This document shows positions 46,143-62,835 of a stretch of 64,000 bases of DNA, in pieces. A program made the translations under genes and the position numbers. Within the stretch, counting starts at the first letter, position 1. Each line of letters begins with the position of its first letter. Source of the DNA: Lophium mytilinum (lineage: Eukaryota); contig MU004189.1 of assembly GCA_010093605.1 (NCBI GenBank), positions 627,834-691,833 on the forward strand. Direction: 5' to 3'. Under the pieces are notes generated by a model that worked only from the letters and a program-made list of their open reading frames with translations, did no database searches and had not been told where the DNA came from.

Positions 46143-46182
<40 letters not shown>

Positions 46183-46192
46183 NNNNNNNNNN

Positions 46193-46287
<95 letters not shown>
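46143..46287 (+). repeat. Poly-G tract spanning a 10-N assembly gap
   Basis: G homopolymer on both sides of N at 46183-46192. Confidence 0.9.
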
Positions 46288-46289
<2 letters not shown>

Positions 46290-47830
46290 GGAATGGATCG
46301 CCGAGAGCTGAGGTATTGATCCGGCCGCGCGAGGAGAAAGACGCGGTCCACAGGAGTTAGAAGGTAAGGCGTAAGTGCAAAGGGCCGTTGGGACAGGATG
46401 TCGTCAGAATACTAGCTGGTGGTGCCAGATGACTTGTACGTAGCAGGGATGCCCTCTCGGTCGGCAAGATGGTGATGTCGTAGCGATAGGAGCGGGGACG
46501 GGGGAGAAACAAAGACAGCAAAGTAGGAATATCTAGGTAGATGAAGATGTAGGTAGCAGGCAAGGGGAGAACTAAAGTCGTCTATATCAGGAGGGCATGC
46601 ACGGAAGGCGAGACAGCCTCAGGGGTGGGCTTGACGCGCTGGACACGGAGCTGATGATGAGCCATAAGCTGCAGCGATAAGGCCTTTATCTGATGCCCCG
46701 TCGTTACGAGCTACTCTATCTTGACCTCCATCTATTGCTCACTATTACTCCGAGGAATACGCACCCATCGCGTTACTTTCGGCGACGACTCAAGCCCGCG
46801 CAGATGGAACAATCCTCCAATGCCGACTTATCGGCATTCTCTCGCATCATATGTGTCCTGTCAGCCTCTCGCGCCAAACACACCACATGAGGCCTCCCAT
46901 GCTCCGCTACCGCTATCACTAAGCCTTACGAGGCTGTCAGGCTGTTCTACGCCTGATTACTTTCCATACCCGGTACTCCTACAACCTTGACCTTGCGATA
47001 AAAAAAATAGAAAGAAAACTCAAATAAAAGATGGAAATGCCAACAGGGGGCCAGTACCCAATAGCTCGAACACACTTAGCTACAACCTGAGACGCATCAT
47101 GGACGACGCACTAGCTCTATCAAAGCACCCCCGAACAACCTTCCGAGCGGTGTCGGATGGGCACTGGATCTACATGATGCCTTGCCACAAAGAACAGAAA
47201 AGTTCGTAGTTTAGCGTCGAGCTTCAACCCATCATCCTACAGTAGATCTTGACCCCCACTTCTTCTATCGTATCAGATTTGTGACGGTCTAAAGCAGTCC
47301 ATAGAAGTCAGGGTACAACTGGCACAGCTGGTACACAAGTATGAACAGGAGTTAAGTTAGTCTACGTGTTTCCTTCCCAAGTATAGCCTGTTATTATAAC
47401 ACCGCTTAATCTTGAATATAAAGTTATATCGTCTATCTACGTGTTATACTTCCAATCCCCATCCTGAAATAGCTGCTGAGCAACTAGTAAAATCAGATGT
47501 TCTGAGCTCATCTGAAATATATTGGTAGACTCGGGAGAGGTCACAATTCACAGGTAAATCAGAGCTCTAAAAACTCCAAGAACGGCAAGACGAGTGCATG
47601 CAAGAAACATGCCTAAAACAGAAAGGGTATCGTGGCATTTCTCTTCCTAGGTATACACTCGAAACGCCTACTGGTATCCTGGTATCCGTAGCGAGGTATT
47701 GTACAATCTGGTATCTCTGCCGGTAAGAATAAAAGCAATGTTCACGCGCCTGGCTCCGCCTGCCAAAACACCAATTCCAACCCGCGCCCGCTAAATGAGT
47801 GTTGTCAAAAGTCGTCCGTCGTCCGTCTTA

Positions 47831-49806
47831 TCAGATTTCATGCGCAGGCTCTTCAGGCCCTACAAATCTTTTTACATCCTCTTCACTCATCTCCTCCCCC
47901 TCGCCTACGCCTTCGTACCGCCTCAGCCGTCGGTTTTCCGACCGCCCTATATAGCTTTTGATCGCGCACTCGTTATTCCCCTGGCAAATCTTTGTGCGGC
48001 CAAGATTCTTGAATCGTGGACCTAGTGGGCCGTTGACGTAGTGGTATTGGCCCACAAAGCGATACTGGCGCGGGTCGTCGAGCGGGTAGAACTTATCCCC
48101 CCAATGGCCAATGAAGTAAAACCACTCGGTCGGCGCAAGGGGAGTGATGTTAGAGCTGCGGAGGGTGTCGTTGACGTAGTCGTAAGTGTAGGCGTGGGAA
48201 TTTAATAGAGGGTCCCAGAGGGGACCGCGGTCGGTCACGTCGTGGAGCAGGCCGCCGGGAAGCACGTAGGGGTGGGTGCCGGCGGTGGCATACATGGCGT
48301 GGGTGCCGGTTGCGGAGTAGGCGATTGGCTTGAAATCTGTTAGCTTCCTGTCTATGAGTATTCCGGAAAGGGGGGACACACTCTCTTCCCGATCTTCTCA
48401 ACCGCTTCGTAGCTGTACGCGTCGCCAAAATTGTGCTCGCTGTAGAAGATCGCCTTTGGCTTCCCATTGTGGAATCGCACGACTGTATGCTCCCAATCAC
48501 CAACATGGTTCCCAAACCGCACGTTGAGAACTACGTTGCCAAGATTGTAGCTGTAGAAGAAAAACCAAAAGGCATCGACCACGCCTTCGCCTTTGTCGAC
48601 CACAACAAGTACCGCAGGCGCATCGCTACGGCCGCCGATTGTCCGTTTACCCCGACGGCGAAGAGCTTCGGGGCGCAAATCCTCCTCCTCATCCTCGTCA
48701 TCTACGAGCTCTTCGCCTTCCGGCGTTTCGACTGGGACCTTGGAGGATTCCCCTGACGATTTCGGGGCGGGTCTTACGCCACCCTTGTCCCTCGTACTGC
48801 CTATACCGACGTCATACCACTTCTCGCGCTCATCGTCTTGGACTTCGCCATCAATTCGGCCGTCCCAGTCTGCCCAAGGCTGCGCTTGCTCGTCAGGGTC
48901 TCCGGGTCGGTTGGGAATGTTAATGGCACTCCCCAGCCATTCCGGACGCTCCTCGACGTTATCGTCGCTCTGCAGATATACAAATCGGCCCCAGGCGTTC
49001 AGTTGGTCAAGATTCGTCAAAGTTGGATGATCGGATTGTGCTTGTAAAGGCGTATAGTTAAGGTGGGGCGTGGTGTGAATAAGGTGCTCCGCTATGTCAC
49101 TAGGCCAGAACTGCTCTCCTGAGTAGAGATATACATATGGCGCGTATTCTAAAACGTATTCGGGCACCTCGCGCAGCACGCGCTCGTCGTCGGACCAGTC
49201 TTCGGGACGCGATTTCCCGCTAGTCCAGAAGGAACTGAGGTCGTCCGCTTCGACAACTGGTTTCTGCTGCTTCCTAGATGTCTTCACTTTAGGACCAATC
49301 CATCCGGCCTTGTTCAGGTGGGCAAGCCCGCAGAACCCGAACCAGTTGCAAGCCTTTCTGTCCAGCCAAGAATGCGAGGATGCAACCCACTGTTTCTCGT
49401 CCAGACGCTCCGAGTATGGTGTGAGCTTCTCGAAGAGAGAGTGCTGGTAGAGTTGGGAAAAGGTGAATAGGCTTAAGAATGTTGAAACGACAGCGATTGG
49501 TGCTTTCCGACCCTTCATTTGGGGATCGGAGCAGTCGGATGGCCCGCCGACTGACACAGAGTTTGGCGGTGGGACTTGCCCGGGCTTTTCACGCAAACGA
49601 TGGTGTACGGGTAGGTCTATGGTAGGTTCGAGGGAGAGTTGGGAGGCGGCCGGCGCAACAACGTCGTTATACGAGACTGGAGGAGAGAGATCCGCTACCG
49701 GAGCGAAGTTTGGTAAAACTGCGGAAGATATGGAGGTCGGCGGAGAGGGGAGGAGCTCATGGAGCGGCGCCTGGCCGAAGCCATGGTGGTAAGGCACGAG
49801 AGGCAC
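47831..49806 (-). CDS. VPS62: Vps62-family protein; start uncertain (ATG 49518 or an upstream exon)
   Basis: YAPYVYLYSGEQFWPSDI, DAFWFFFYSYNLG, FGNHVGDWEH, YSATGTHAMYAT and GPLWDP; intron near 48330-48380. Confidence 0.88.
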
Positions 49807-50699
49807 TGGAAAAGCGGCACCATAAGGTTAGCACAATTACCAATTGGACAAAATGGGACAGCATGACAAGTACTCGGTGAAGAAAGTGCTAGGCCGAAGC
49901 TTCCGGAGTGGATGACAAAAGCTTATCGCCGATGCCAGCAAGGTGAATGCACGGGAGCCTGCGGCTTGTGGAAGCGCCGGAAGATCGACGTCAAGGAAGA
50001 GCGGGCAGCGGTTGCACTATTGGGAGCTTCTCGGGGGAGAATCGGGCTGCTATGGGTGTGGTCGGAGGCCAGAGTGATGATGGAATGACGGTGAGTTGGC
50101 GGAGGGTGCCCAAAGGCCCGCGCTGCTCGGAGAGGGAGGGTGGAACGGGACTCTGGAACGGGACTCACTGTCGATATGTCACGTCGGCCCCACGCTGGCT
50201 GGCGGCCTTGGCTAGGGCGGTGGAGGGCGAGGATGAATGAGCGGTGTCGCGGGCATCTGCGGCGTGAATTGGATGCGCAGATGGATGAATTGTGTTGTGT
50301 CTGGTCTTGAGAGGGACGGCCAGCGCGGACAGCTTATGATGTGGCGGGCTGAAACCAACCAGCGGCTGTCCTCCGAGTTCCGCAACGATTCGCTGATCCA
50401 ATAGTGGCATCACGTGCAAGCGCCTGGGAAGTTTGACGTCAGCGCAGGTCTCACCTCGAGACGGTATACGCGATACGCGATATAGTACATTCACTTCAAT
50501 GTTCACGGCTAGTTCCGCGAAGTTGTTCAGCGAAGAGGGAAACCGGCGATGACTTCATGGCTGAACAGATGAGTCTCCGGTAGAAGCAACGACTCGGGGC
50601 ACATTGCAACCTTGAACTGCCGTAGATTATCCACCCGCAAACTCTAATTCTGACCTCAAGCTGCAACAACCTCACTAACCAGTATCCCTGCAAACGAGA

Positions 50700-51668
50700 A
50701 TGGACAAATCAGACGACGACGAGTGGGAGTATGAGTACGACGAAAACGAGACAGAGGAGTTCTACGTGACCCTCGACCTGTCCGGCATCCTCCCAAAAGG
50801 CCAGGAAGGCATCGATCCAGCATACATCCCGTCTGAAGAGCGACGCTACACAGGCCGGCCCTCGTATAAGAAAACAAAGTCAAAAACAACAATGGCGGCA
50901 GCCAGCCTGCTAGCAGCGCAAGACTCGGCTCCAGGGCTATCTCCAGAGAGCGAGACAGAGGCCCTCGACTCGAGCCGCATCCAGATAATCGATCTGCACA
51001 CCTCAAGTCCCCTCATTGCGTACCAAGGCCAGCTATTGAGTTGCCACTGGGCTTCCACTGTTGGAACCGACATGCTGTTTGCAAAACAAGATCCAGATGC
51101 AGACACACAGCACACTCTATTACGAACAATACCCCCGTTCGATCTCCTAGGGCTGAGCTCAACCAAACTGATGGCATCCACCGCTAAACTGCGACCTCGA
51201 GATAGCCATCCAGTCATTGAGAAAGAAGCAGCCCCGTCTTTTGACCAGGCAACGCGGACGCAATTTTCGGGTACGACAGGCACGAGCGGCACCGATTCTC
51301 AGCTCAAAACTTCGAAAGCGAAGATCAATCAACAGAACTTCTTGAGCCGGCTTGGGGCTGCCAATGCGAAGAGGAAGAGGGATGATGACTCGTCGATAGG
51401 ATTGCCGACGAGGGCTGGTGGATACGCTTTCGTGAGAGAAAGTGAATCCCCAGAAGATACGTTAATCTCTGGCGACCTTCCTTCAATAGCAGATGAAGAA
51501 ACGGTGGCGGTAGAAACGGAATTAGCTGAGAGCGGGTTGGTTTCGGGCCCCACCCCATTGGTAACTGGTGAAGAAGCGACAGTGCGCGAATCGATAGAGG
51601 ACAGAGCAGTTCCAGGTCCAACACCTTCATTGGCCGACGAAGATACAGTCATGATTGAAAGCGGGTAA
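50700..51668 (+). CDS. TFIIIC subunit (triple-barrel / TFIIIC_sub6-like) protein
   Basis: EWEYEYDENETEEFYVTLDLS and IQIIDLHTSSPLIAYQGQLLSCHWASTVGTDMLF. Confidence 0.75.
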   Translation: MDKSDDDEWEYEYDENETEEFYVTLDLSGILPKGQEGIDPAYIPSEERRYTGRPSYKKTKSKTTMAAASLLAAQDSAPGLSPESETEALDSSRIQIIDLHTSSPLIAYQGQLLSCHWASTVGTDMLFAKQDPDADTQHTLLRTIPPFDLLGLSSTKLMASTAKLRPRDSHPVIEKEAAPSFDQATRTQFSGTTGTSGTDSQLKTSKAKINQQNFLSRLGAANAKRKRDDDSSIGLPTRAGGYAFVRESESPEDTLISGDLPSIADEETVAVETELAESGLVSGPTPLVTGEEATVRESIEDRAVPGPTPSLADEDTVMIESG

Positions 51669-51897: not shown

Positions 51898-53260
51898 TCA
51901 ACTCTTAAACCCAATATCCCTCCTGAACGTCCACGTTCCCCCATCCCCGGAAACAGGCTTATAGCCTAGTACCCCCTCAACAAAACTCAGCAACAGCGTC
52001 GGACTCAACACGAAGTTCATCCGCGAGCCCTGAGTACTGATCGTCAACCCATCAAGCACAATCCCGAGGCCGAAGGGGGACTCGTGAAGTTTTAGGGTCG
52101 CGGCGGGGGGCTATGAAACGGATCCCATCAGCAAGAAGCTCATTTCAAATAGTTTAAGGTACAAGGAGTATACACATACCCTATTCGCTGTATTATTATC
52201 CCTCTTCGTCCACCGCTCCAAATACCCCTCTACCACCTTCAGCGACGGCGGATGCGAACACTGGATGCTAATCTCTTTCGCGTGCGGCGAGTACATGATG
52301 ATCATGTGGTAGGGCGGTTTGAGGGCGAGATACTCTGGACGCGGGAGGGTGGCTACGTCAGGCAGGGTGTCCAACTCAACCGCAGCCGCAGTCTCCGCCT
52401 TTTTCTGGACATTGGCGGTCGAGGGGCCGGTGTCTCGAGTGGAGATAGCTCCGCTTGTGCTGTCTACTTCTATGTCCGCCCATGAGTCGTCTGGTACTTG
52501 GCGCTGGGATAGCGGGGTTGGAGCAACGGGAGGATCGAGGCAGGCGAGGAGGTCTTCGCTGAAGCCGCTGGAGAGGGATGACGTGAGGTTGAGGGGGGCT
52601 TTGGGAAGGTGGATGGTGAAGGCGGACTGGGGAGCGGTCCAGGTTGTGGTTGGCCGAGGGGATGGGGGTTTGGGTAGGACCTGGGGTGGTTAGAGAGGGA
52701 AACGATGGTTGAGACTGAGGCTTAATTATGAAGGTTGAGAATGAAGCTTAAAGATGAAGGTTGAGGTTGATGTGGTACTGGCTTGGTATCAAAAGCGACA
52801 GGTTAAGAAATCGGAGGAACTTCCAATTCAAGTGGGAACGACTCGTGATGTTGCAAATGCAGACGTATGAAATCAATTTTATGCTCACTTCAAGCCTGAT
52901 CTTCACCTTATGCGTCTTACCTAACTCTTCCAGCACCTTCTCAGTCCACTCCTCATTCTTTTCATCATCAAGCAGCGTCGTCAATGCGTCACACCAAGCG
53001 CTCACGACCGCGCACACACTCGGGATGAAGGTTGATGTATCAGGGTAGTGCGGCTGCAGCTCTGCCCACAGCATCTGCCATTCAGGCTCGCAGTCGATCC
53101 GATAGCCGACCAGATCCGAAAGAGCTTTTTGGGCTTTCTGGAGCTTCGTGTCTTCTTTGGACCAATTGTCGCGAATGTCAATCTTGAGGCGCGTGGGGCT
53201 GAAAGTGGCTATTAGAGGGATGTACTCTAAACGTAAGCGGTGAAGGACTTACAGGGACAT
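51898..53260 (-). CDS. Uncharacterised protein, 4 exons
   Basis: ATG 53260; three canonical introns. Product: MSLPTRLKIDIRDNWSKED...WQMLWAEL...LPRPEYL..PPYH..IQCSHPPSL..YLERW...LLLSFVEGVLGY...WTFRRDIGFKS*. Confidence 0.8.
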
Positions 53261-54168
53261 CTTAAATTTGAAAAAATATATTCAATGCAATCTCGAGGGC
53301 TCTTTCTTCTGAATAAATGCGTTCAGCTTGATGCAGAAAATCTTCCTGCACTGATACCAGCAACCATCTACCCCACGGGAGCCCCCCTTTTATCCCCCCC
53401 CCACCCCCGTTCACATCTCCACAACCCCTCTACACAGCCACCTCCCGTCAGGCCCTCGCCGCAGGAACCCCTCTCCCGCATAGCTGGTGCCTGACATAGC
53501 TCCTACCGGCCCAAGCGAACACGCGTGCTAAGAGACGCTCGATCCCGCATTGCGGCTGGTGTCCTAGGCGGTACCTTTGTGGCGTTACAGCCTGCTCTGT
53601 GGTCCGACACCGCCATCGCAGACCATATCGGGACTTCACAGTCATTCTATCAGGGCCTAACAACGCAATCTTCACACGAACAGGGTTAGGACAGACGAGA
53701 AGGAGCTGAAAAGCCCCCCGCGTGGAACATGACATTCGGTCTTTTATTGAGTAGAAGGCAAGGCAACCAAATAATAGATGCCGGCACAAAATGCACTAAA
53801 TTGCCTAAAGCAAGCCGAAACTGCATGCACTTCACGCTATGCACATCAGGCACATCTGGGCCCGCGGCTCCTATTTTGGCTCGAAACTACTCATGCAAGC
53901 TTTGCCAACGGGCGTTCGTAACAGCGTTCAGCTGAACAAGCTTTCAAGGGTCGATGGTGCTGGAGCCTCAACAATGAGCGAGGGGGCGCTTATGGTGCCG
54001 TGTTAGTGAGGGGGAGGGGCTGAATGGCAATTGTATATAATGTAGGTACAGCCGCGGGAAGAGAGGGAGTATCCAGCTATCAGAAACCACTCAAGGGTTC
54101 AATTGATCCATTTCTACTCTCTATCGTCCGAAGTTTCCAGAAGATTATAACCCAAATCAACTGCTATC

Positions 54169-55238
54169 ATGCCTACTGTCCTTGAACCTGCTGCAAAGCT
54201 TCCTTTAGCCGTCCGCAAGAATGGTGAACACACTCCCCTCTCTTCATACATTCTCAGGAATCAGAGCTGATATACGCAGTGCGTGACAAATTCGAAAGCA
54301 AGAAGGAAGGTCTAGAAAAGCAACTGTCCGACATCCTCGGCGAGACATGGAAGATTGACATCAACCCCAACGCCATCTACGTGTATGCCGAAGACAACAG
54401 CTACGGCAAAGACAACCTGGGAGGTTGCTTGCACTCGTAAGACCAACTCGCTCCGCACAACTATCCCTCCCCTACCCTCCCACCACTTCCCGAACCAACC
54501 CTCTCACTAACCCAACCCCCCAGCTACGTCGCCGACACCATCTGGAACCTAAAATACTTTCTCGAAAAGCACGGCGACCTCGGCAAGACCGAGCTCAACA
54601 CCGTCGCCACCGCCCACACCCTCACCCTCGCCTTCGACGAAAGCGGCACCGTCCGCTATGCCTCCTGCGACATCCACGACGGCACGCTGCGCCTCCTCTT
54701 CCAAGAAAACAACCTTGGGACCAACATCAGCGCGGCCACGAAGATTGAGCAGCTCGAATCCGCCTTGTGCGCCGCGACCCCCGACGCCCCGCTCTCCTAC
54801 TCCGCCCGCATCAACATCGCCAAGGCGTGGGACGCCAAACTCCCCGAACTACAAAAGAAGATCGGAGCACAGCTCGCCAACGACAAGATCGTGCTCGATC
54901 CCAACTTCGTCGCCGTCTACGCCGCGCTCAAGGCCGCGCCGGTGGTGGCGAAGGAGCGCCCGGATTGGGAGCAGTCGCTAGGGTACATCATGAACCAGTA
55001 TTTCAACGGGCTGCTGCATACGCTGGCGTATCAGAAGTTTGAGAAGGACGACATGCTGCAAGAGGGGTTTGCGGAGGCGGTGGAGAAAGGGGAGATTCGG
55101 TTCCGGGTGGTGGAGAAGCTGGGCCGGACGTATAATGAGAGTGTTATTGAGGAGGGCGTCTTCTGGATGCAGACGAAGCCGGAGACTTGGGCGACGAATT
55201 GTGGGGATGTGGGGAGTGATGTTGTGAATCTGTTGTAG
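54169..55238 (+). CDS. Uncharacterised protein made of two internal repeats, 3 exons
   Basis: ATG 54169; introns 54224-54279 and 54437-54523. Product: MPTVLEPAAKLPLAVRKNVRDKF...DVVNLL*, with strong codon bias. Confidence 0.88.
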
Positions 55239-55439: not shown

Positions 55440-56080
55440 GTGAGAGGTCCTCGTAATCTGGCCCGTTATGGGTGCAAATTTCCGGGGGTGCCAGATTACG
55501 GACTGGCTCCCGGTTATACATCTCGATATTATGTAAATCGTTGGCTTTTTGTAGGTCTAATTTGTAGGCTTGCGAGCTTTACATCGCAAATCACATGGCC
55601 CTTTCAAGCTCTAAATCTCCAGGGGTGCGAGATTGCGGACTGGCTCCCGTTTATACATCTCGACACTGCAAATTGTTAGCTTTTCTAACGGTCTAATCTG
55701 AAGACTAGCGAGGTCCGCATTGCAAACAGGACTTGATCTTAGACCTATTAGAGCGACAAGTTGTCAGGTGTGCTAAATTGCAGACTGGCTCCTGTTTATA
55801 CTTCTTAACTCGACCTAGTTTGATAGGTTTCCAGGTGTCTAATATAAAGGCTCCTGAGCTTTATATCGCAAATGCACTCAAAACCAGGCCCATTGAAGCT
55901 CCTAACTTCCAGGGTACGAGGCTGCGGACTGGCTACCGCTCATACTTCTCACCTCTACCAAAATCGGTAGTTTTACGAGGCCCTAATCTAAGTGCTCGCG
56001 AGCTTTATATCGCGAAAAGCACTTAAAACCAGACCCTTTAAAGCTTTGAAGTCCCAGGGATGTGAAATTACGGACTGGAG
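55440..56080. repeat. Degenerate tandem array, ~137-146 bp unit, about 4.5-5 copies
   Basis: C(G/A)GACTGG(CTCC) at 55499, 55636, 55781, 55925 and 56071. GAGCTTTA(C/T)ATCGC-like motif at ~55574, 55710, 55857 and 56000. Confidence 0.8.
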
Positions 56081-56381
56081 GGCTCTAGTCTGCTAGGTAG
56101 ACAATAGCAAAAAGCAGAATAGAGTCGTGGCGGGCAAGCTCCAGGATTGAGACCACTTAACGCCTCGGTTCAGTCGAGTCGATCACGACCCCGCAAACCC
56201 CAGCCATTTCATGCCCATGGAGGAAGAGATTAGCCATAAGAGATTACGTGAAACTGTCTTCCAAATGCTCGTGCCTTTGACAGGAGATAACTATCTTGTT
56301 TTCCCAAGTGCTCTCAACACAATTGAATAGCTACTTACCTCTGCCTACTTGTAGTACTAAACCTCCTTTCAGTCTAGCACG

Positions 56382-57679
56382 ATGCCTATCCGAAGCGATT
56401 GGAAGCTTCAACGTGAAGGTGAGCTCTGCCATCCTACGCATCTAATGTCATCCACAGCACCACTGACAACCATCCACTAAAGGAATCACCGTCGACACCA
56501 TCGGACGCCTGATCGGTAGGACCCTTCTTAATCCTGCAATCACACTTCCGCTGCTTCTCGCGGCGAAGTACACCGTCAAAGGCGAGGCGCTTGCTACAAA
56601 CCATGGACGCACCCTGAAGAACTTGAAGACGCTGGTGTACTGGGGACTGGCTCGATATGTCTCCAAGCTCCTTGATAGCGCTGTGGCGAACAACTGGACG
56701 AACGACCAGTATGATTGGGATAAAGAAATCGCAGTGGTGACGGGAGGATCTGATGGGATTGGAGCTATCGTAGTGAAGCTTCTTGCAGAGAGAGGTATCA
56801 AGGTTGCTGTTTTGGACGTCCAGCCACTGAAGTATGAAGGTGAGTCGATGTACCCTTATTCTTCGCAACTTAATCATACCTCGCAACCTCCCCCGGCCCT
56901 CATCCACCTTGCTCAACACCGCAGCTAATCCATCCCAATTTGCAGCCTCCCCAAGCGTCCACTTCTTCCAGTGCGACCTCTCCTCGCCCTCCTCCATCGC
57001 CTCAACCGCAACATCCATCCGCACCTCCCTCGGCGACCCCACCATCCTGATCAACAACGCCGGCTGCGCGCGCGGCAAAACTATCCTCTCCACCACGGAG
57101 AAAGACCTCCGCCTTACCTTCAACGTCAACACCCTCTCGCACTACTTCCTCGCGCAAGCCTTCCTCCCCGCTATGATCGCCGCCAATCACGGCCTTGTCC
57201 TCACCGTTGCCAGCACCGCCGCCTACCTGACCGCGCCTCAGATGGTGGACTACGCCGCCTCGAAAGCCGCGGCCCTCGCCTTCCACGAGGGGCTTTCGGC
57301 GGAGCTCGCGACGGTGTATAATGCGAAGAAGGTGCGGACGGTAGTCATGTGCCAGGGGTATACGCGCACGCCGCTGTTTAAGGGGTTCGATGATAGCGAT
57401 CGGCGCGGGGCGGGGTATGCGCTGGAGCCCGAGACGGTGGCGGAGGAGATTGTCAAGGCGGTGCTGGTGGGGAGGAGTGGGCATGTTATGCTGCCTGCGG
57501 CGAGCTGGTTCGTTGTGCAGCCAGTGCGGGGGTGGCCGCTGTGGATGCAGTATGGGATTAGGAAGAGGCTAGCGAAGCTGATGAAGGGGTGGGACGGGAG
57601 GCAGGTTGTGCAGCCGAGTGAGGGGAAGATAGAGGATAGTGGGGTGTTGGTAGAGTCAGAAGGGGAATCCAAGGATTAA
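56382..57679 (+). CDS. Short-chain dehydrogenase/reductase (retinol/17-beta-HSD11-like), 3 exons
   Basis: WDKEIAVVTGGSDGIG, PTILINNAG, TFNVN and DYAASKAAA (YxxxK). Confidence 0.92.
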
Positions 57680-60195: not shown

Positions 60196-62048
60196 TCATC
60201 CGTCTAATACATCAGACGTAACGGTCACTCGAAGCCCCTTTGAGTCCAGTTTCGCAACCGGCATAAAGAAGTCATACTGGATATGAAAATCGGACTCATC
60301 AGTCTCATATAACTCAAACGTAAACCGACGAACTACCGCCGCAAGCCCTAGGTAGATTTCCGCGTATGCGAGACTACATTACAATTAGCACTTTCATTCC
60401 CTTCATGAATCACCAAAATATCTAAGAAAGGTGCTAAACCCACTTCAACCCAAGACAAATCCTACTCCCACCCCCAAACGGATTGAAATAATGCTCCAGC
60501 GGCTTCCCACTCGCCGTCTTCGGATTCCCGAGCCACCGTTCCGGAATGAAAGCGTTCGGATCGGCGAACACGCTCTCATCAAGCATGAAATCTAACAGTG
60601 TCATTGACACCGGCGTCCGCGGCGGGATAACTCATTCTTTATACCGCATCACGCCCTCCGCCAATCTCGGCATCCGCGTCGCAACCCCGAATCCCAGCCG
60701 CAGGCGTTCTTTTACGCACGCCGCGAGGTACGGCAGTTGCTCTAGCCTGACCCAATCGAGCGGCTGCGTTGGGTCTGGGAGCGCTTCAAAGAGCTCGCTA
60801 CGGAGGCGCTGATGGATGCGGACGTTGTTGGTTACGTGGAAGGTGGTCACGCTGAGTACCCAGGCTGTGGTCATGATGCCGGCGCCGACGACAGTGGTGG
60901 ATTCGTCGACGAGGCGGGTGATATTTTTTTCAGCGGGTGGAAGCGTGCTGGTGAGAATTTCGTGCATAACGGTGGGGCGGGAGGGGGGCTTGGTGGAGAG
61001 GTCTTCACCTTGGGTCAAGCGAGTGCAGAGGGCGACAAGGTCCTGGGTGTCTTAGGGTGATGGCTGAGTAATGGGAGTAATGGGAGTAATGGGAGTAATG
61101 GGAGTAATAACCCAATGTAGTCGAAAGAAAGGTTCCATAACGGGATTCAGAGCGTTTGCTAACTTGACGGGAAGTGCTCGAAAGCACTGCCAGCATTTGA
61201 TGATAGATGTATACATGACGGACTCGGAAGGCTACTAACCGGCAAGAAGAACGGAAAGTGCGTCTGCACGTGGCCAAATCTATAGGCGGCAAGAAATGCC
61301 TCGTGCATGCTGTCCTGGAAGCCAGGAGACTTGAGTTTATCGTAGCAAAACCCAAACGCATATTCCATAGTCACATCGCCAATATAAGCGGTATAGCCAT
61401 TATGGAGCATAACCATCTTTCCAGTCTAATTGTATTGTGCGATCTGCTCACATTGGAGGGCGAGCTTCTCTCGGATAATGGGTTCATACTTCATCATTGC
61501 GCGTCTTGAGAACCTGAAATGGTCGTGAGCCTTACAGAAGGGATGACACAGTGTATGGAATCAAAATGACTAACATGGGGTTTAACGGCGGCCGACGCAA
61601 CCGGTGCAGTTCGTGAGGCACCGTTGCAAATGTGTTACTTGGGATACCGAAGCGATACGCCATCCACTCCAATTTATCCGCCTTGGGGTTCCTAGTGTAG
61701 AGCTCTTCAAACTACTCGGCGTCGGAGACGTGTAGCTCTGTCGGGTTGATGCGGACGATAGGTCCTAGGGAGAGGTTAGGTAGAAGAGAGTAGCTCTAGC
61801 ATAGTTAAATTTGACTGGGTCGCCTAGGTACCGTATCTTCTATGCATCTCTTGCACCTTGAAGGAGAACTTTCCTCCATTATTGTAGACGATGTCGTAAC
61901 ACGCCTCATACCACTTCGTCAAGGCGGCGAGTTTGGGACCCGTGAATTTAGCAATCGGGCTCAGGTAGAGGCTATAGATAGCGAGACTTGTAGCATAGGT
62001 AATAGAGGCCACGAGTAATAGAAGGGGAAGTTGAGAGGAGATAGCCAT
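60196..62048 (-). pseudogene. Cytochrome P450 pseudogene (trichodiene-oxygenase-like group)
   Basis: GPKLAALTKWYE, YGPIVRINP.ELHV, GAG..TT, KERLR, FIPERWL and FGGGSRICLG. In-frame stops at 61712-61714 (TAG) and 60632-60634 (TGA), with a broken frame in the middle. Confidence 0.9.
61066..61108 (+). repeat. 9-bp minisatellite (GAGTAATGG) x ~4.8 inside the P450 pseudogene
   Basis: Exact tandem copies read directly from the sequence. Confidence 0.9.
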
Positions 62049-62835
62049 AGCTATAAGTGAGAGGCAAACTACATGAAAATGAGGACACGATTTTTCAAGA
62101 GCAAGTGACCAAGGATCGAAAGGTACAAAAGACACAGTATATATAGTAGAAGAATCTACAACCAACCGCGGACGCCCATAAATCTTCCTAGGTAGTAGTC
62201 TTCATGTATGCGCCCCTATATGGGCATAGTCATAAACAGAGACGCTTGTATAGCGCTCATTAAGAGCGACATGCATCACGATGGTCGCACAATGACTGGT
62301 AGCTATTGGATAACAGAGTAGAAGACAGCGGCTCCGCGCAGAAGGCTTCTGCAGTACTGAGGCACAGTAGATGCACGAGGCCGGAGCATAGCCGAGTGAA
62401 GCCTGCAGGCCGGTAAAGACCCTTGAGCGTAAAACGGAGTTTTGCAGGAACTTGATCCCACGAGCATTTGATACCCTGCAGCTCGAAACACCTTGGGATA
62501 GGCGAGTCTACACCAGGTCTCGCTCCCGGGAAAGCAGCTGAATGGCCCGCTGGTATTTTCTCGGTATAGCTTTCGGACGTACTGTTTTCCGGAACTCTTC
62601 ATATGGTGTCGCTGCGGTAATGCTATGAAGATAGTGGTGGAGCCGTACTCCCATTAGGGCGAACTGATTTGTGATCGGCTAACATGAACGACTTCACCTG
62701 CCTAAAACACTCTCCTCTTTTTTCCAGGTAAAACAGCAAGCGGGGCAACAAGGTTGTTTCTCGTCGAAGGATTGTTCGTACAAGCCGTGAGAGTTGTGGC
62801 ATGCCAATACGCCAAAGAGATCACACTTCCAGTGT

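Follow-up and report, generated by a model that had tools for sequence, protein, structure and literature searches.

A divergent gene pair of Lophium mytilinum whose products share one domain: an undescribed, apparently ancient two-gene module

INTRODUCTION

What do two adjacent genes do for each other when they start back to back and their products share a domain that belongs to no characterised family? The question is raised by positions 51,898 to 55,238 of a 64,000-nucleotide stretch of the Dothideomycete Lophium mytilinum (GenBank assembly GCA_010093605.1, contig MU004189.1, positions 627,834 to 691,833 of the forward strand), which we call the window. It carries a head-to-head pair, named here gene A and gene B, both of whose products are "hypothetical protein" in the databases. 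A preliminary description, made from the sequence alone, had read the pair as two spliced, divergent genes for cytosolic proteins and had proposed a two-component module of a nonself or toxin-antidote flavour. We report here that the two genes form an undescribed and apparently ancient two-gene module, and we weigh what this module may do.

RESULTS

Two spliced genes diverge from one spacer

The pair and the sequence between its members occupy the following positions of the window.

54169-55238, plus strand: gene A, 308 amino acids; exons 54169-54223, 54280-54436 and 54524-55238; two tandem units
51898-53260, minus strand: gene B, 343 amino acids; exons 53260-53253, 53198-52889, 52680-52180 and 52110-51898
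53261-54168, no strand: divergent spacer between A and B, 908 bp

The start codons of A and B face outward across the spacer. The translation of gene A is identical to its stored protein (P0001), and that of gene B agrees with its own (P0011) at 343 of 343 residues. All five introns, two in A and three in B, are skipped at their predicted canonical ends in contigs of run X3, a probable RNA run that we take as RNA by guess, and none of the five is skipped in the DNA run X1. None of the runs that contain the locus is registered as RNA. The X3 contigs end at 53359 and restart at 53435, and transcript starts are not readable from contigs. The gene models, the stored proteins and the intron skipping thus bear out the two spliced genes and the 908-bp spacer of the preliminary description. 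Each gene was found to be single copy in the L. mytilinum genome by a scoring of the best candidates only.

One unit occurs twice in A and once in B

A unit of about 150 residues is found at three places in the pair.

54190-54779, plus strand: A repeat 1, about residues 8-156; alpha/beta unit of weakly zincin-like fold, HExxH absent
54780-55235, plus strand: A repeat 2, about residues 157-308; conservation highest at Y230, D246, E251 and G282
52528-53260, minus strand: B N-terminal domain, residues 1-157; third, distantly related copy, by profiles and fold neighbours

The internal duplication of gene A, which had been noted before, was confirmed in two ways. Repeat 1 aligned pairwise to repeat 2 with a z of 5.3, which 0 of 2000 shuffles equalled, and the profile-profile comparison, for which 72 near-full-length A and 15 B sequences served as input, gave a probability of 99.4% with an E value of 5.5e-22 over 138 columns. 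The N-terminus of B matched repeat 1 and repeat 2 with a probability of 79% each (E value of 1.6e-5, scores of 36.7 and 36.8), and the match is confined to the first 74-81 columns, which are the helical first half of the unit. As controls for these scores, the reversed profile reached 18.6 and 16.2, and the maximum of 40 block shuffles each was 28.9 and 22.7. A hidden Markov model built from 139 A repeats alone matched the N-terminus in 10 of the 15 B proteins and nowhere else in them. For the second half of the unit in B, the basis is the order of secondary-structure elements, together with the fold neighbours common to the model of A and that of B residues 1-157 (3pt3, 4l7a and mt-SAF6), with no sequence signal. 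The C-terminal half of B gave no profile-profile match to the unit. We conclude that A and B share one domain; the earlier reading, in which B opens with the domain of A and continues with a different one, holds in both parts.

Judged from copy counts in the A family, the unit is modular at the sequence level. Among 160 A-family sequences, many of which are fragments, 155 have two copies, three have one, one has three and one, a protein of Ambispora, has four.

The pair is kept while its surroundings change

In three other Dothideomycetes, Mytilinidion, Zopfia and Lepidopterella, the accessions of B and then A are consecutive on contigs of the same size (3 of 3 pairs looked up), which indicates adjacency, not orientation. 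Nine metagenome loci with B come from four organisms, in three of which the sequence upstream of B exceeds 2 kb; A lies head-to-head with B in two of these three informative organisms, L007 and L011, whose spacers measure 962 and 651 bp. The B of L011 is closest to that of Galerina (46%), and its A branches, with a support of 0.999, among proteins whose named sources are Hypsizygus, Mycena and Leucocoprinus. Four of the five intron positions are shared with L011 in the same codon and phase, namely the two of A and the first and third of B. The splice models of these two loci are rough: that of L011 misses one small A exon and one B intron, and that of L007 misplaces one intron in A and one in B. 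The pair therefore appears to span ascomycetes and basidiomycetes, the basidiomycete side being assigned by similarity on one contig (L011). Inheritance is the simpler reading of the L011 pair, and the alternative is an old transfer of the whole locus. The preliminary description had asked whether orthologues stay adjacent across Pezizomycotina; they do in the three pairs looked up, and the adjacency reaches beyond that group to an Agaricales-like locus.

None of the 468 window open reading frames outside the pair matches any of the nine metagenome loci, and the gene beside A is Frag1/Sfk1 in L007 but a short-chain dehydrogenase in the window. That the head-to-head order is kept while the flanks change points to likely selection on the two genes to act together. 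Between the window and L007, exon 3 of A has a nonsynonymous divergence (dN) of 0.26 and a synonymous divergence (dS) of 1.36, which indicates purifying selection; in exon 3 of B, dS is saturated.

Predicted structure and conserved residues of A

The AlphaFold model of A is a confident one (predicted local distance difference test, pLDDT, 97.8; predicted template modelling score, pTM, 0.90), suggesting that the two repeats probably pack as one rigid body. Its fold neighbours are zincin metallopeptidase domains, HECT C-lobes, mt-SAF6 and TCAIM, with Z of 4.5-6.5. In the best structural row, a whole zincin catalytic domain lies over repeat 1 and the first part of repeat 2 (Z 6.5, root mean square deviation (rmsd) 3.3, 109 residues). 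Foldseek against PDB returned no match at E ≤0.001 for either the A or the B model, and the PDB sequence search with the A and B profiles returned nothing significant (best E values of 1.1 and 0.27). Among viral structure models there were weak zincin-type rows, and one row with an E value of 9e-4 but an rmsd of 18.9, which we do not trust.

Four positions are conserved in both repeats (G66/G224, Y72/Y230, G124/G282 and N138/N296), and R20, N96, D246 and E251 are conserved besides. The near-invariant polar residues are E251 (99%), Y230 (98%), D246 (96%), N96 (95%), R20 (94%) and H102 (82%). We considered A as a zincin metallopeptidase and rejected this assignment, because the HExxH zinc-binding helix after the sheet is missing. 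One of 160 A sequences has HExxH, near residue 275 at a non-equivalent place, and none of 15 B sequences has it; no His is among the commonest residues at A 146-151 or 300-304, the helix after the sheet in the two repeats. An assignment to the HECT E3 ligases was likewise rejected, since there is no Cys at the hairpin position and no HECT Pfam match among 119 A and 15 B sequences. That position, mapped by sequence motif rather than by superposition, is residue 122, a His, and K, H, S and R are the commonest residues there among the 119 sequences. On the predicted models, the unit appears to have a weakly zincin-like fold without a zinc site, which is new here.

The maximum hydropathy over 19 residues was 1.33 in A, 1.57 in B and up to 1.82 in B homologues in a simple scan with no signal-peptide predictor. 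The values for A and B support soluble proteins, in line with the preliminary description.

Linker motif and C-terminal domain of B

The predicted model of B, built on 15 sequences (pLDDT 74.7, pTM 0.47), places the unit at residues 1-157, where the fold neighbours are 3pt3 (Z 5.2), mt-SAF6 (Z 5.0) and 4l7a (Z 4.8). A disordered linker (residues 158-209) and a second domain follow.

52372-52527, minus strand: B disordered linker, residues 158-209; pLDDT below 50; mean conservation 0.31-0.34 outside the motif
52462-52491, minus strand: acidic W-x-x-[ILV] motif, a candidate Atg8-interacting motif, residues 170-179 in the linker
51901-52371, minus strand: B C-terminal domain, residues 210-343; candidate KCTD-CTD/GFRP/Q4D6Q6-like fold; invariant S248 and H249

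The motif is the single conserved island of the linker, ten residues long, with a conservation of 0.75 against the low values around it. W173 is present in 15 of 15 B homologues, as is I, V or L at +3, and acidic residues stand on both sides. The motif is also present in the B fragments of L006, L008, L011, L012 and L014 and is kept from ascomycetes to agarics; 1.1% of 20000 linker shuffles yield such a pattern. According to PMC7297954, the LIR/AIM core is [WFY]xx[LIV] with upstream acidic residues, and predictors of the pattern are far from perfect. The B motif has the core, the upstream acidic residues, a disordered surrounding and conservation, in agreement with this sequence definition. 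It resembles an Atg8-binding motif and is a candidate for one.

For the C-terminal domain (residues 214-343), the best rows were trypanosome mt-SAF subunits (Z 8.0-8.2) and Q4D6Q6 (Z 7.9), and further rows, from Z 5.4 upwards, included the KCTD1 C-terminal domain (CTD; 7.1), KCTD16 H1 (6.7), KCTD8 H1 (6.4) and GFRP (5.5). Most of the top rows (Z 6.4-8.2) have an rmsd of 2.5-3.5 and cover residues 226-340; eIF1/SUI1 comes next at 6.1. The profile search of PDB gave no sequence match to KCTD-CTD/GFRP-like domains. The KCTD1 CTD and GFRP form near-identical pentamers (PMC7618933), and KCTD8 H1 resembles GFRP (PMC6851490). We tentatively suggest that the modelled C-domain of B resembles this ring-forming KCTD/GFRP fold (Z 7-8). 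B as a whole is not a KCTD: Pfam matches no BTB domain in any of the 15 B sequences, and in the N-terminal position B has a homologue of the A unit. S248 and H249 are present in 15 of 15 sequences.

Clohesyomyces has two B genes (in the set P0016, P0018 and P0019). Lepidopterella has a second, shorter B record that lacks part of the N-domain and retains the linker motif.

Families and distribution

No Pfam family matched more than one member among the 119 A and 15 B sequences, and PADLOC, NCBIfam and PHROGs gave nothing convincing for eight proteins of the two families, so that the earlier failure to recognise a characterised family stands. The A profile search returned 726 clusters at 50% identity. 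The named members among the matches listed, the best 150 of the 726, belong to a chytrid, Glomeromycota, Agaricales, and Eurotio-, Leotio-, Sordario- and Dothideomycetes. With a search less sensitive than that for A, B turned up in Dothideomycetes, Magnaporthiopsis, Xylogone, Galerina and Mycena, and the A and B counts are not comparable. The B genes of Magnaporthiopsis, Xylogone, Galerina, Mycena, Lindgomyces and Clohesyomyces come from genomes with no A protein among the named matches. Both proteins are 85-87% identical to those of Mytilinidion. Word-based and tblastn searches, which remote relatives could escape, found no prokaryotic or viral relatives in GTDB genomes, IMG/VR, plasmids and phages. 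The ESM Atlas holds unnamed clusters only, which are eukaryotic at scores of 0.92-0.96; the one sub-threshold lead to the putative bacterial or amoebal relatives of the preliminary description is a cluster of 141 amino acids, mostly Discosea, with a score of 0.77. No literature on either family, nor any record of localisation, interactions or mutants, was found in a search that most subscription journals and supplements, such as expression or proteomics tables, lay outside.

Several Fusarium A homologues (P0071 cluster) are named 'mitochondrial dicarboxylate transporter'. One record among them has 616 amino acids, with two units at 63-362 and additional sequence besides, and the name has probably spread from such a fused gene model. 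The A homologues P0037, P0043, P0050, P0057 and P0071 have an N-terminal extension of 60-90 residues, with a charged, helical-looking start and then an S/T/P-rich stretch. The top A-profile match, P0026, is labelled as the chytrid Rhizophlyctis rosea and stands near Dothideomycete A proteins with a weak support of 0.77; this placement may reflect transfer, contamination or tree noise.

Spacer and neighbouring genes

Three short words in the spacer are weak candidates for regulatory sites.

53926-53937, no strand: 12-bp palindrome, candidate shared regulatory site (weak)
54097-54108 and 53319-53328, no strand: related words, candidate regulatory sites (weak)

Two words of 12-13 bp are common to the window and L007 spacers, a length of 13 being reached by 18 of 500 shuffles, and they are not shared with L011. 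The general pattern is not enriched in the window, with three matches, a number that 41 of 100 shuffles reach. The exact 10-mer test used a word chosen after it had been seen.

Convergent with B across a gap of 230 bp is a gene with the triple barrel of a TFIIIC subunit (50697-51668, plus strand; PF10419, E value of 1.5e-21), and one X3 contig spans both this gene and B. The region is flanked by a Vps62-like gene (47831-49827, minus strand; E value of 1.2e-4, below the cutoff) and by the short-chain dehydrogenase gene (56381-57679, plus strand). Just 3' of A, at 55459-56016, a unit of about 140 bp is repeated in three to four degenerate versions, 66-82% alike; short pieces of it also match other contigs of both runs, which makes it a dispersed repeat of unknown kind. 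At about 46150-46300, a long G/C homopolymer run with the 10 N letters of the window, probably an assembly gap, adjoins a gene at 46109-44223. Exons at about 60200-62200 (minus strand) resemble what we take to be a cytochrome P450 from the heme motif in their translations.

DISCUSSION

What the two proteins may do together

The conserved adjacency and the shared domain argue for the two-component module of the preliminary description, and we consider it probable that A and B act in one process. As a possible form of that process, which we put forward tentatively, the two would make up a co-regulated, non-enzymatic cytosolic adaptor module, with B as an oligomer, A as its partner and selective autophagy as a possible setting. 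The steps of this proposal are inferred with falling confidence, from the single process through a protein-binding unit, a ring and the docking of A on B to the binding of Atg8. The unit would be a protein-binding module, of which the two copies in A form one rigid body, and it may bind folded proteins by analogy with TCAIM, which, as reported in PMC13311838, uses repeat motifs to bind a folded enzyme, whose degradation it promotes. The match of A to TCAIM is weak (Z 4.5, rmsd 12.4). The C-domain of B might form a ring like those of KCTD CTDs and GFRP, which would let B present several units and several motifs, and A might dock on B via the shared units or by catching the linker motif. A prediction of the full-length A and B complex scored 0.56 in three runs, with unrelated controls at 0.65, 0.00 and 0.00 and with alignments unused, and is evidence neither way.

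If the linker motif bound Atg8, B would serve as a multivalent receptor of selective autophagy, with A as the partner that binds cargo or caps B, which we hold to be doubtful. The fullest version, a selective-autophagy or quality-control module older than the ascomycete-basidiomycete split, with a ring-shaped Atg8-receptor B, a cargo-recognising or B-capping A and one bidirectional promoter, is unlikely.

Several observations weigh against the adaptor proposal. The fold Z scores for A and B fall below about 8, in a range that the tool calls "possibly a common arrangement", and the B model rests on its 15 sequences with the low scores given above. Ala stands at +1 of the linker motif in 14 of 15 B sequences, which is stricter than Atg8 binding is known to require, and the motif may therefore have a partner other than Atg8. 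The W-x-x-[ILV] pattern alone is cheap, since a second W-x-x-L in the folded N-domain of B fits it too. A looks far more widespread than B and may often act alone. In the third informative metagenome organism, L008, there is no A within 3.0 kb upstream of B. The alignment of the near-identical L008 (1-2837) and L010 (1-253) breaks off about 210 bp before B on its upstream side, so that the missing A may reflect a local rearrangement, and the A of L008 may lie elsewhere in the genome.

Other explanations of the pair

The arrangement might also reflect shared regulation without physical partnership, if an old inverted duplication left paralogous N-termini at one promoter and both genes serve the same response. 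An inverted duplication leaves just such head-to-head paralogous starts; the spacer is short in three loci, with words common to the window and L007; A without a visible B is common in the match lists, and L008 has B without an upstream A. However, fungal gene order decays fast, and a pair kept from Dothideomycetes to an Agaricales-like fungus despite changed flanks has lasted long for promoter sharing alone, and the spacer words are absent from L011. We regard shared regulation alone as fairly unlikely. A nonself, defence or toxin-antidote pair, in which one protein is toxic or death-triggering and the domain-sharing partner restrains or activates it, has two precedents: the Neurospora doc locus is defined by hypothetical genes that are linked and paralogous (PMC4831770), and domains common to neighbouring genes have been proposed as coupling adaptors in conflict systems (PMC7159879). 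The oligomer-type domain of B and the extra B copies in Clohesyomyces and Lepidopterella would suit such a pair. Yet each gene is single copy here, the identity to Mytilinidion is high, dN is far below dS in exon 3 of A, and the introns are conserved across phyla. Hydropathy gives no clear membrane segment, Pfam gives no NLR, HET, HeLo, gasdermin or other effector domain, and PADLOC gives no match. With single copies, purifying selection on exon 3 of A and no defence-model match, the nonself or toxin-antidote flavour of the preliminary description finds no support, and we judge a pair of this kind distinctly unlikely.

A new enzyme, with the cleft between the repeats of A or S248/H249 of B as the catalytic site and the partner as regulator, would account for the near-invariant polar residues of A (E251, D246, Y230, N96, R20 and H102), for the row over a whole zincin catalytic domain and for the invariant S248/H249. 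GFRP, moreover, is an allosteric enzyme regulator according to PMC7618933. However, a metal-binding helix is missing, neither repeat having a His in the helix that follows the sheet; the conserved charges could form salt bridges between the repeats, and no enzyme genes travel with the pair. An enzymatic role thus seems improbable to us.

Should the autophagy reading be true, filamentous fungi would gain a new type of receptor, and the KCTD/GFRP fold would have a use in fungi; should the conflict reading be true, the pair would be a new fungal effector-antidote family. The anatomy of A and B, with one tryptophan motif, one candidate ring domain and one shared unit, is directly testable. Pfam has a model for neither family, even though the clusters of A alone number in the hundreds and come from chytrids, Glomeromycota, ascomycetes and basidiomycetes.

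Comparison with known systems

The Neurospora doc-1 and doc-2 genes are, like A and B, linked, paralogous and hypothetical. The DOC proteins, as described in PMC4831770, have 828-920 amino acids, two of them have membrane segments, and the locus has divergent haplotypes and trans-species polymorphism, whereas A and B are small and soluble, with no known homology to them (no direct alignment was run). In bacterial conflict systems, the effector-associated domains (EADs) also repeat one domain in neighbouring genes and have been proposed to couple the gene products by like-with-like binding (PMC7159879). They are, however, small and helical, and they are joined to NTPases and toxins; none of those partners is found at the A/B locus.

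The upper subdomain of the zincins (BACCAC_01431 4l7a, Wss1, M1 aminopeptidases and lethal-factor domain IV) weakly resembles the modelled unit, with Z of 4.8-6.5 and an rmsd of 3-4.6, in an arrangement of helix, strand, helices, three-stranded sheet and following helix. The unit differs in having neither HExxH nor a third ligand and in occurring in tandem, and the scores are low enough for a shared arrangement only. The HECT C-lobe (UBR5 3pt3 and others) aligns to A repeat 1 (Z 5.9, rmsd 3.0, 88 residues) and to the N-domain of B (Z 5.2), but there is no N-lobe and, at the hairpin turn that in HECT holds the catalytic Cys, no Cys. The tandem repeats of TCAIM and trypanosome mt-SAF6 align over both units of A with Z of 4.5-5.3 but an rmsd of 11-12; TCAIM is a mitochondrial DNAJC co-chaperone, whereas A has no J-domain match, no sequence similarity to it and another repeat geometry.

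In KCTD1, KCTD8/12/16, GFRP and the kinetoplastid Q4D6Q6, the fold may be like that predicted for the B C-domain (Z 5.4-7.9). KCTD8/12/16 have a long flexible linker between two domains (PMC7618933), as B does. B differs in carrying a zincin-like unit at the position of the BTB domain of KCTDs, and its oligomer state is a prediction by analogy. In p62/SQSTM1 and yeast Atg19, a self-assembly domain, an acidic W-x-x-hydrophobic motif in a disordered stretch and a second folded domain are combined in a layout like that proposed for B. B has no PB1, UBA or other homology to them and has a linked partner gene, and its binding of Atg8 is putative. By analogy with these proteins, the A/B module may work like an oligomeric adaptor of the KCTD type or of the p62 type.

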